Source of the DNA: a virus
Taxonomy: Duplodnaviria; Heunggongvirae; Uroviricota; Caudoviricetes
Virus record (IMG/VR): IMGVR_UViG_2737471846_000027
Span: 1-12,108 of that record
DNA length: 12,108 nucleotides
Direction: 5' to 3' (one strand)
Positions 2,725 through 3,669 of the stretch are shown here, one piece after another (the stretch's first letter is position 1; each line of letters begins with the position of its first letter). The position numbers were made by a program, and so were the translations under genes. The notes beneath the pieces were generated by a model, which was given only the letters and a program-made list of their open reading frames with translations, did not search any database and had not been told where the DNA came from.

Positions 2725-2950
2725 CGTCGGGTCCTTCCTGGAATTATGGCCCGTTACGGGGCGGCGACCTCGCGGTTTTTATCTGTTTATGAAAATTTTC
2801 CGGCAAAAGTCAGATCCGTTCTTCTTCTCTGTAACAGACTGTTTAAAAATGAAAATATTAAAAAAAGAAAGGATCTGACACGAGGCATTTTAGCCAGAAA
2901 ATGTCATTATCAGATCCTTTCTCATTTTTGTTCAATAATTGCGCGTCTGT
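2725..2950 (+). other. Lambda-family cos site, copy 1 (cosQ-like, cosN GGGCGGCGACCT at 2759–2770, lambda-like cosB)
   Basis: Bases 2759–2800 read GGGCGGCGACCTCGCGGTTTTTATCTGTTTATGAAAATTTTCCGG, near-identical to the lambda left end as I recall it. Patchy lambda similarity continues about 180 bp through the cosB region (CCGTTCTTCTTC, AAAAGAAAGGA, CCTTTCTC). It is oriented rightward, convergent with terS. Confidence 0.8.
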
Positions 2951-3492
2951 TACTCGCCTTTCTTCTGTAGCAACTTTTCCGGTACGTTTCCGGTTGTTTC
3001 GTTCAGGTAATCAGCCAGTATCTGTGGGAGATTGTCGGCAACTCTGGCACTGGCATTACAGGCTTTAACCACTTCCCTTTTAAGCCCATCCAGCATAGCG
3101 GTGGTAATGTGTGGGAAGCTCCTTTGCATAGTAAGCGGGAGGCTGTCCATGATTGAAGAAATCTGACTTGCCAGTTTTGAAAGCGCGTACATGCAAAACT
3201 CTGTATCAATCACGTCACCGCGTTCGCGCTCGTTTTTAAGTTCCTGCGCCTCTGCCTGTGCTGTCAGCAATCTGATCCTGACTCGTAGGAGTTCATCATC
3301 ATCAATCTCGTCCGTTTCGTTTGTAATCTGGCTGATTGCATTGTTAACCCGATTATCTATTACACTGGCGACATCATAAAACGCCTCACGGCCCTTACGC
3401 TCGACGGGAATCACTCCCCACTTATCGAACGCAGTGGCGCTTACTCGGCAGCTTTTCGCCATGGTTTTTTTATTCATCAGGTGCGATTTCAT
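2950..3492 (-). CDS. terS: Terminase small subunit, lambda Nu1 family
   Basis: Translation aligns with lambda Nu1 over its length as I recall it (LTAQAEAQELKNERERGDVIDTEFCMYALSKLASQISSIMDSLPLTMQRSFP versus lambda LTRAQADAQELKNARDSAEVVETAFCTFVLSRIAGEIASILDGLPLSVQRRFP). The ORF track starts it at GTG 3504; I prefer ATG 3492 (MKSHLMNKK...), which has a GGGGG Shine-Dalgarno 6 nt upstream. Confidence 0.9.
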   Translation of the reverse strand: MKSHLMNKKTMAKSCRVSATAFDKWGVIPVERKGREAFYDVASVIDNRVNNAISQITNETDEIDDDELLRVRIRLLTAQAEAQELKNERERGDVIDTEFCMYALSKLASQISSIMDSLPLTMQRSFPHITTAMLDGLKREVVKACNASARVADNLPQILADYLNETTGNVPEKLLQKKGE

Positions 3493-3504
3493 CAATACCC
3501 CCAC

Positions 3505-3669
3505 TTAATTAATGCTTCAGGTTGGTGTGTTGGTGTTATCTTTCCCTTTTTATTCATAGAGATAGAGCGAACAACAAAACCACCACCACCAACCCGAAAA
3601 GGCTCATAAATAGCGAAAAACCGCGAGGTCGCCGCCCCGTAACGGGTCCATATGCCGGAAAGGACCCGT
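3505..3669 (-). other. Lambda-family cos site, copy 2 (cosN at 3626–3637 on the minus strand, cosQ-like inverted repeat 3642–3669, divergent cosB with CACCAAC/GGTTGGTG repeats), immediately upstream of terS
   Basis: The reverse complement of 3601–3670 reads ...GGGTCCTTTCCGGCATATGGACCCGTTACGGGGCGGCGACCTCGCGGTTTTTCGCTATTTATGA, matching the lambda cosQ/cosN junction. The roughly 120 bp between cosN and the terS start contain repeated CACCAAC units instead of lambda R elements. Confidence 0.8.

Follow-up and report, generated by a model that had tools for sequence, protein, structure and literature searches.

Why does a phage satellite carry two packaging sites that face each other across a single gene? 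The question is raised by a 12,108-nucleotide stretch of DNA (IMG/VR record IMGVR_UViG_2737471846_000027, positions 1 to 12,108; the window), in which two lambda-type cos sites stand in inverted orientation on either side of terS, a gene for a small terminase subunit (TerS). Judged by gene order and phoQ integration site, which are those of EcCICFT073 in strain CFT073, the window holds a member of the EcCICFT073 family of phage-inducible chromosomal islands (PICIs), next to phoQ. We propose that each of the two facing cos sites is opened by a different "key," widening the range of helper phages. On the comparisons set out below, we consider this reading moderately probable.

The lambda cohesive-end sequence, cosN (GGGCGGCGACCT), occurs as an exact match twice. 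A repeat search of the window places both copies in a pair of inverted arms, 82% complementary and spaced 789 nt apart, and a direct recount of the arms finds a perfect core of 31 bp, CCCGTTACG-GGGCGGCGACCT-CGCGGTTTTT. The features of the block are as follows.

2728-2803, plus strand: inverted-repeat arm 1 (cosQ-cosN-I2 of copy 1), 76 nt, 62/76 identical to arm 2
2729-2735, plus strand: GGGTCCT, the cosQ core of copy 1, at the lambda distance of 30 nt before cosN
2759-2770, plus strand: cosN of copy 1, exact match; the "distal" cos, homologue of EcCICFT073 cos2
2809-2928, plus strand: cosB of copy 1, core CAGATCC, with R3 (2809-2826), I1-like A/T region (2827-2861), inverted R2 (2862-2879), and R1 (2910-2928)
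2950-3492, minus strand: terS, Nu1-family small terminase, 180 aa from ATG 3492 or 184 aa from GTG 3504
3520-3595, minus strand: cosB of copy 2, with R3-like GGGTTGGTGGTGGTGGTTTTGTTGTT (3570-3595), that is (GGT)4-TTTTGTTGTT, and inverted partner ACACCAACACACCAACC (3520-3536)
3593-3668, minus strand: inverted-repeat arm 2 (cosQ core 3661-3667, cosN, and I2 of copy 2), from the repeat search and recount
3626-3637, minus strand: cosN of copy 2, exact match; the "proximal" cos, homologue of EcCICFT073 cos1

Both copies keep the lambda spacing of 30 nt from the cosQ core to cosN (2729-2735 on the plus strand, 3667-3661 on the minus strand), and in both an I2-like segment follows cosN. They differ in cosB. 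Copy 1 has all the lambda-type subsites: the cosQ spacing, cosN with its flanking CG, I2, three R boxes (the middle one, R2, inverted), and between R3 and R2 an I1 rich in A/T. Inverted and direct repeats were detected in its cosB, together with one match to the IHF consensus, with 1 mismatch. This cosB ends 22 nt short of the minus-strand terS stop codon (2950-2952), and copy 2 lies directly upstream of the terS start; the segment between the two cosN sites measures 855 bp. A preliminary description made from the letters of the sequence had reported this inverted pair, with a perfect core of about 30 bp, a lambda-like cosB in copy 1 toward the 3' end of terS, and a different cosB in copy 2; all its coordinates proved correct.

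When at most 1 mismatch was allowed, 3 cosN matches were found in the window against 0.06 expected by chance in shuffled sequences. The third, GGGCGGCGACCC (7218-7229, minus strand, 1 mismatch), lies in the primase coding sequence, outside any cosQ, I2, or R-box context, and was rejected as a probable chance match. Plus-strand open reading frames (ORFs) across the cos sites (2746-2970 and 3522-3671) are without support, overlap the repeats, and were treated as spurious.

The two cos sites of the EcCICFT073 family are already known: they were deleted, cloned, and tested in 2018/2019. In EcCICFT073 itself, the cosN sites also form an inverted pair, at 7559 (plus) and 8298 (minus) of its locus L003, where they flank rppA. 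The published cos1 and cos2 (Figure S1A, Fillol-Salom 2019, PMC6739421) map onto this pair: cos1, just upstream of rppA, corresponds to copy 2 of the window, and cos2, beside a gene for a 93-aa protein, to copy 1. Lambda and phi80 can transfer a plasmid that carries either cos; the island itself is transferred less when cos1 is lost and not at all when both sites are lost; and the RppA-TerS complex acts via the cosB of cos1 (Fillol-Salom 2018, PMC6092414; Fillol-Salom 2019, PMC6739421). Helper-dependent induction, replication, and high-frequency transfer have been shown by experiment for EcCICFT073 only. That each of the two cos sites works, and that cos1 relies on the island's own factor, was thus established by others, in a sister island.

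The arrangement is in this respect less novel than the preliminary description supposed, since two cos sites were on record. Their inverted orientation is not mentioned in the two Fillol-Salom papers or their supplements; cos2 is not mentioned elsewhere in the searchable literature, where Murialdo and Feiss treat only the rpp-proximal cos. Nor did the searchable literature yield the flipping of the segment, the phage source of the distal cosB, or a variant with TerS in place of Rpp. Three points thus appear, from sequence comparison, to go beyond the literature that was searched: TerS takes the place of Rpp, the distal site has a phage identity and is combinatorial, and the cassette between the sites is found naturally inverted.

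How close are the two islands? They share the family, the phoQ site, the gene order, and two cosQ-cosN copies in the same positions and inverted orientation, which flank a packaging-specificity gene. In EcCICFT073, the proximal site relies on the island factor and the distal site is functional on a plasmid. The islands differ in the factor itself. The shorter Rpp must heterodimerise with a phage TerS, whereas the rpp slot of the window holds a full-length Nu1/N15-type TerS with a C-terminal tail; the window is an EcCICFT073-family variant, not an Rpp-type member. They also differ in both cosB elements: proximally, CACCACCACCAC in EcCICFT073 versus (GGT)n/TTGTTGTT in the window, and distally, the CATGTCCGG class versus the CAGATCC class.

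The layout of the window agrees with this placement. It starts with phoQ (1-1461) and continues with the island, read on the minus strand: integrase, AlpA, D5-type primase, single-stranded DNA-binding protein (SSB), a capsid protein like lambda E, a decoration protein like lambda D, the cos-terS-cos block, and the gene for the 93-aa protein. Among the ORFs of the window, the ORF list and Pfam reveal no terL, portal, tail, or lysis gene. With no gene for the large terminase subunit (TerL) beside terS or anywhere in the island, TerL must come from a helper.

The pair is widespread. The preliminary description had allowed that the duplication might be absent from related islands; instead, the pair is conserved in hundreds of genomes, and 483 complete E. 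coli genomes contain >=80% of region 2600-3800. The taxonomic names among the protein matches are Escherichia and Shigella, and a scan of GTDB species-representative genomes with the 41-nt copy-1 arm gave no match.

Which enzyme would open copy 2? The island TerS matches Pfam PF07471 (E 2e-23, 83.2 bits, cut-off 30) and phrog_57 (E 5.5e-52). It is 36% identical to lambda Nu1 over the full length (E 1e-33), and its closest phage relative is N15 gp1 (44% identity, E 4e-52, full-length alignment), with which it has in common the N-terminal recognition motif AFDKWGV-PVE-(K/R)GRE. It has no similarity to RppA (BLASTP E 7.8), and a PDB sequence search gave no match at E up to 1, RppC included. An AlphaFold2 model from a 25-sequence alignment was too poor for fold comparison (mean pLDDT 60, pTM 0.29, residues 1-20 below 50).

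The DNA next to terS points the same way. In N15, cosB consists of a single R3, GAGGTTGTTGTT, at bp 48-59, and neither lambda nor 21 terminase packages N15-specific DNA (Feiss et al. 2015, PMC4669245). Counted from the cohesive end, copy 2 has GGTGGTGGTGGT at bp 48-59 and then TTTTGTTGTT. Position and G/T-rich composition fit, but only 7/12 bases are identical when the two sequences are counted against each other. An N15-like TerS DNA-binding end, a G/T-rich R3-like box at bp 48-59, and a short interval between cosN and the gene are common to the window and the N15/"Monarch" prophage group (PMC4669245). The differences are that the cohesive end of the window is lambda's, from which N15's departs at 2/12 positions; that R3 is (GTT)3 in N15 and (GGT)4 in copy 2, which also has an inverted partner about 50 bp downstream; and that the element in the window is a satellite, devoid of terL.

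The copy 2 type of cosB is conserved in terS-type relatives and in single-cos satellites of other Enterobacteriaceae, found in metagenome/Logan contigs (L069-71). These satellites encode a TerS 58% identical to that of the window and carry a GGTGGTGGTGTTGTT box at the same place; no inverted second cosN was found within their loci. We read copy 2 and terS as a probable cognate module of the N15 class because of the likeness to gp1, the box at bp 48-59, and the boxes of the satellites with the 58%-identical TerS.

As elements, the same satellites resemble the helper-embedded Enterobacteriaceae PICIs (compare Mageeney et al. 2023, PMC10111431). They carry genes for capsid-E-like, D-like, and AlpA-like proteins with the cos and the N15-like TerS, and are inserted in the major-capsid gene of a helper prophage; genes with FRG and DUF3892 domains follow terS. 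They differ from the window in their single cos.

Copy 1 leads to another source. Its order of subsites, their spacing, and the 12-nt cohesive end are those of lambda, where cosQ-cosN-I2-R3-I1-R2-R1 stands upstream of Nu1. In lambda, however, the R-box core is CGTTTCC, not CAGATCC, and in the window no Nu1 follows: what the site meets is the 3' end of a terS in the opposite orientation. The R3, R2, and R1 cores of copy 1 are those of a lambdoid prophage, L006, which has cosQ-cosN, R3 TCAGATCCGTTCTTCTTC, R2 AAAGGATCTGAC, and R1 TCAGATCCTTTCT, and then its own nu1, terL, and portal. The cos/nu1 junction of this prophage type is present at >=95% identity in 223/5,426 complete E. coli genomes.

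Is a phage-like distal site a peculiarity of this island? We collected 56 IMG/VR loci with the copy-1 arm and classified the cassettes between inverted cosN sites; 47 cassettes form the class-pairing sample. Distal cosB sequences fall into 4 classes. Class (a) is CAGATCC, as in the window. Class (b) is the 21-type CATGTCGG, identical over R3-I1 to the cos of an O157:H7 prophage. Class (c), CATGTCCGG, is that of EcCICFT073 cos2 and agrees at nearly every base with the cos of a common lambdoid class of phage-sized IMG/VR records: EcCICFT073 cos2 (L003 8100-8297) and L090 (3166-3360) are nearly identical, and the phages of this class encode a Nu1-family TerS (starting MATQTEVARHL), a gpA-type TerL, and a lambda-type portal. 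On this comparison, the claim in print that EcCICFT073 cos2 has no phage cosB would hold only for the phages compared there. Class (d) is GAGGTTGTTGTTT with an inverted partner, the R3 of N15. Cassette and distal class were paired as follows.

N15-like TerS cassette, distal class a: n = 8
N15-like TerS cassette, distal class b: n = 13
Rpp cassette, distal class c: n = 9
Rpp cassette, distal class d: n = 8
Gene-less cassette, c facing d: n = 9
21-like TerS cassette (one E. coli island), distal class a: n = 1

In none of the 47 sampled cassettes is the proximal class the same as the distal class.

Two further observations concern these relatives. The gene-less cassettes measure 512 bp in L019, L038, L039, L052, L060, L061, L063, and L064 and 613 bp in L054; they keep only a 3' remnant of rpp, with CATGTCCGG-class and N15-class cosB back to back. 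E. coli RM10466 has two islands of the EcCICFT073 family, integrated in different places. The one at phoQ (L005, 1369356-1383535) has the copy-1 cos of the window and a mosaic TerS: its N-terminal half and cosB are 21-like, and its C-terminal half is nearly identical to the window TerS.

How would two keys work? After helper induction, the island would excise and replicate into concatemers. Copy 2 would serve as its private site: TerS is predicted to bind the R3-like box (GGT)n/TTGTTGTT, which lies about 48-68 bp away from the cut, and to bring stolen helper TerL to nick cosN at 3626-3637. Packaging would then proceed to the left (window coordinates), crossing terS and the reversed copy 1, and go on round the concatemer. 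The reversed cos should not stop it, because termination needs cosQ ahead of cosN, as we infer from the known subsite order; packaging would end at the next co-oriented copy 2. Copy 1 appears to imitate the whole cos of a different lambdoid class (R3-I1-R2-R1, CAGATCC). A helper of the CAGATCC class could use its own unmodified holoenzyme there and would package in the opposite direction. From either site the whole unit would be packaged. If both sites were cut in the same unit, the 855-bp segment would be released and packaging aborted. Binding partners, cleavage, packaging direction, and benefit are thus predictions for the island in the window.

Two suggestions of the preliminary description belong here. 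Dual specificity, with helper Nu1 at one site and island TerS at the other, gains support by comparison, copy 2 being paired with an N15-like TerS and copy 1 carrying the R boxes of a separate lambdoid prophage class. Bidirectional initiation of packaging would follow from the geometry of the two sites.

Satellites of other bacteria use one or the other of these strategies. In pac staphylococcal pathogenicity islands (SaPIs), a satellite TerS redirects helper TerL; in cos SaPIs (SaPIbov5 and SaPIbov4), the satellite carries a copy of the helper cos, and SaPIbov4 has been reported with two putative cos sites. The island in the window differs in that it joins the two strategies in a single module, its lambda-type 12-nt cos sites standing head to head.

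Four observations weigh against our proposal. First, outside the R boxes, copy 1 and the cos of the L006 prophage are only about 80% identical. Second, deletion of cos2 from EcCICFT073 raised transfer by lambda and phi80 (PMC6092414; PMC6739421), so the distal site is costly with these two helpers; aborted packaging after double cutting would explain the cost seen with lambda. Third, the last 55 residues of the window TerS, although 49/55 identical to those of another island TerS, are at most 20/55 identical to those of any phage TerS examined. The C-terminal region supplies TerL binding in lambda-like small terminases (Murialdo and Feiss), so which TerL this TerS recruits is a guess. Fourth, the DNA upstream of terS yielded no sigma-70-like promoter, and copy 2 has a terminator-like hairpin immediately upstream.

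Could only the terS-proximal copy 2 matter? Copy 1 would then be a passenger, a relic of the acquisition of a phage cos-nu1 segment that is harmless or hard to lose. The cos2 deletion speaks for this, as it did not cut transfer by lambda or phi80, and so do the related satellites L069-71, which manage with one site. Against it, copy 1 keeps every subsite across hundreds of genomes, and in all four distal classes the cosB is intact and has its match in a living phage class. The cos2 plasmid was packaged, transfer of EcCICFT073 was abolished only when both sites were deleted, and the gene-less cassettes retain nothing but two phage-type cos sites. We regard the relic explanation as unlikely, if slightly less so than the other rivals.

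Alternatively, copy 1 may be mainly a decoy, a site that soaks up or misdirects helper terminase and so lowers phage yield without being a route of transfer. Its faithfulness to a helper-type cosB would suit such a role; PICIs of the EcCICFT073 family do interfere with helper packaging, and concatemers of the replicated island would offer many decoy copies. But the published interference of EcCICFT073 mapped to rpp alone. Moreover, cleavage at copy 1 would still start packaging of the island, and decoy and transfer are inseparable by sequence. We consider it improbable that interference is the main role.

The inverted repeat raises a further question: does the cassette flip? The preliminary description had listed an invertible terS cassette among its options. 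We searched complete E. coli genomes with a query in which the 855-bp interior is reversed between unchanged flanks, and applied the same test to the other cassette classes. Counted by BLAST coverage thresholds and with clonal relatives included, so that the numbers show occurrence and recurrence and not a rate, the terS cassette is flipped in 5 genomes (at 100% of the query length) versus about 483 in the window orientation, the rppA cassette in 15 versus 68 unflipped, and the gene-less 512-bp cassette in 3 versus 44. In the IMG/VR sample, the gene-less cassette divides 4 versus 5. One strain has both orientations of the gene-less cassette, in two islands. In the phoQ island of strain WP4-S17-ESBL-08, the cassette is the reverse complement of that of EcCICFT073 at 727/727 positions, and the left flank is identical. 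In two islands unrelated to each other, L009 (near narP/yejO) and L010 (at tqsA), annotation puts the flipped terS and the capsid genes on opposite strands. Misassembly was rejected as the source of the flips: the genomes are complete, the flips recur in several unrelated strains and integration sites, and the arms, at <=76 bp, are shorter than reads. Inversion thus stands as a natural polymorphism, rare for the terS type.

Two routes could produce it. One is homologous recombination across the 31-bp core. The other is double cos cleavage, which would leave an inner fragment with two identical 5'-GGGCGGCGACCT overhangs, able to re-anneal either way. The junctions of the flips lie within the core common to both arms: variants on the cosQ side remain with the flanks, whereas those of I2/cosB accompany the cassette. 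Both the RecA-mediated and the terminase-mediated route predict this pattern, and sequence cannot separate them. The island encodes no invertase; its sole recombinase is the integrase, about 7 kb away. Flipping is probably a by-product of the inverted repeat and not a regulated switch.

Might it nonetheless be a genuine switch, in which flipping alters expression of terS or rpp or the facing of the cos sites and makes packaging phase variable? Each of the three cassette classes is present in both orientations among complete genomes. The sequence-perfect flip relative to EcCICFT073, the strain with both orientations in two islands, and the near-even division of the gene-less class in IMG/VR all fit such a switch. 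Against it stand the missing invertase and the rarity of flipped terS cassettes, which argues against a fast switch; the four CFT073 records among the matches listed show one orientation, and either orientation would give a full unit-length genome. Additionally, the terminator upstream of copy 2 suggests that, whichever the orientation, the capsid operon does not simply drive terS. The Hin, Gin, Cin, and fimS systems likewise have a short segment between inverted repeats that is found in both orientations. They differ from the window, which has no invertase or enhancer and whose repeats are packaging sites; here, the minor orientation makes up 1-18% across genomes, with no switching within clones as far as assemblies show. 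A regulated switch is, in our judgment, improbable.

It is about as doubtful that the head-to-head cos pair is itself an inversion and exchange device operated by terminase. The inner ends would share the 5'-GGGCGGCGACCT overhang and the outer ends would carry its complement, and the fragment could be ligated in either orientation or give way to a cassette cut out of a different island or phage present in that cell. If true, this would amount to site-specific flipping without a recombinase and to a shuffling of packaging specificity at each helper induction. Exchange of cassettes exactly at cosN is not supported: swaps between class a and class b keep the same I2, ATCTGTTTATG, so their breakpoints lie inside cosB. 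Exchange does seem to occur between arms, as both arms carry the same cosQ variant in L012, L016, and L026. That the cosQ-cosN arms are chiefly portable homology for cassette swaps, with a second cos devoid of any packaging role, is very improbable: conserved flanks around a combinatorial interior (five cassette lengths, three factors, and >=4 cosB classes) and the patchy exchange of variants in the arms would fit, but the a/b swaps, with their unusual I2, break inside the cassette and not in the arms, 30-70 bp is a poor homology substrate, and the always-complete, phage-matching distal cosB would be left unexplained.

The two-key proposal thus remains the one we favor. The other features of the window form its surroundings.

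2413-2694, minus strand: gene for the 93-aa protein, the last island gene before phoQ and the conserved outer flank on the copy 1 side; phrog_1561 (E 7.5e-56), of unknown function
3675-3694, minus strand: strong intrinsic-terminator-like hairpin GGCCGGAGAAATCCGGC with T run, between the capsid/decoration operon and cosQ of copy 2
3766-4101, minus strand: head decoration gene (D-like), Pfam PF02924, E 2e-17; EcCICFT073 c1500
4113-5168, minus strand: major capsid gene (E-like), Pfam PF03864, E 3e-51; EcCICFT073 c1499
6617-8371, minus strand: D5 primase gene
10326-10514, minus strand: AlpA gene
10879-12108, minus strand: integrase gene (int)

The hairpin is the conserved outer flank beside copy 2 and is present in all relatives; the gene for the 93-aa protein has the same position in EcCICFT073 (L003 8374-8655). 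Many IMG/VR contigs end 316 nt outside copy 1, and such ends were tried as marks of cos cleavage; they coincide with the outer end of the 93-aa gene, which suggests a boundary of prophage prediction. In most relatives, including EcCICFT073 (c1501 region), a 137-aa gene separates the decoration gene from copy 2. It is missing (about 357 bp; window 3745-3770 versus L002 10099-10512) from the window and from strain 05-3629, the closest relative, and its deletion joins two short GCCATCGT repeats. The 137-aa protein belongs to phrog_1999; it weakly matches head-maturation protease families in their C-terminal part and is possibly a scaffold-like piece.

Between the end of phoQ and the last island gene (1462-2412, about 950 bp), ORFs do not exceed 106 aa, and relatives have no gene annotated there; presumably this region holds the attachment-site junction and decayed sequence. 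Three minus-strand ORFs have no Pfam match: 9324-10268 (314 aa), 6019-6333 (104 aa), and 8673-8945 (90 aa). The 314-aa ORF sits where relatives have small hypothetical and Icd-like genes, so the regulatory/accessory region varies between otherwise close islands.

What does the arrangement mean for this family? The second site appears to be a copy of the cos of a different helper-phage class, available in interchangeable versions, and not an odd duplicate. The close match of EcCICFT073 cos2 to a common lambdoid cos corrects the published statement that EcCICFT073 lacks any phage cosB. The replacement of Rpp by TerS, the phage identity of the distal site, and the inversion speak to a question that the field has left open. 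The exact natural flip of the experimentally tractable EcCICFT073 cassette provides a simple system in which to ask whether cos sites can mediate DNA rearrangement. If the two-key reading is true, a satellite would be mobilised by two kinds of helper and by two mechanisms, its own factor with stolen TerL or the unmodified enzyme of the helper. Such mobilisation would bear on the spread of these islands, which can carry virulence and defence genes.

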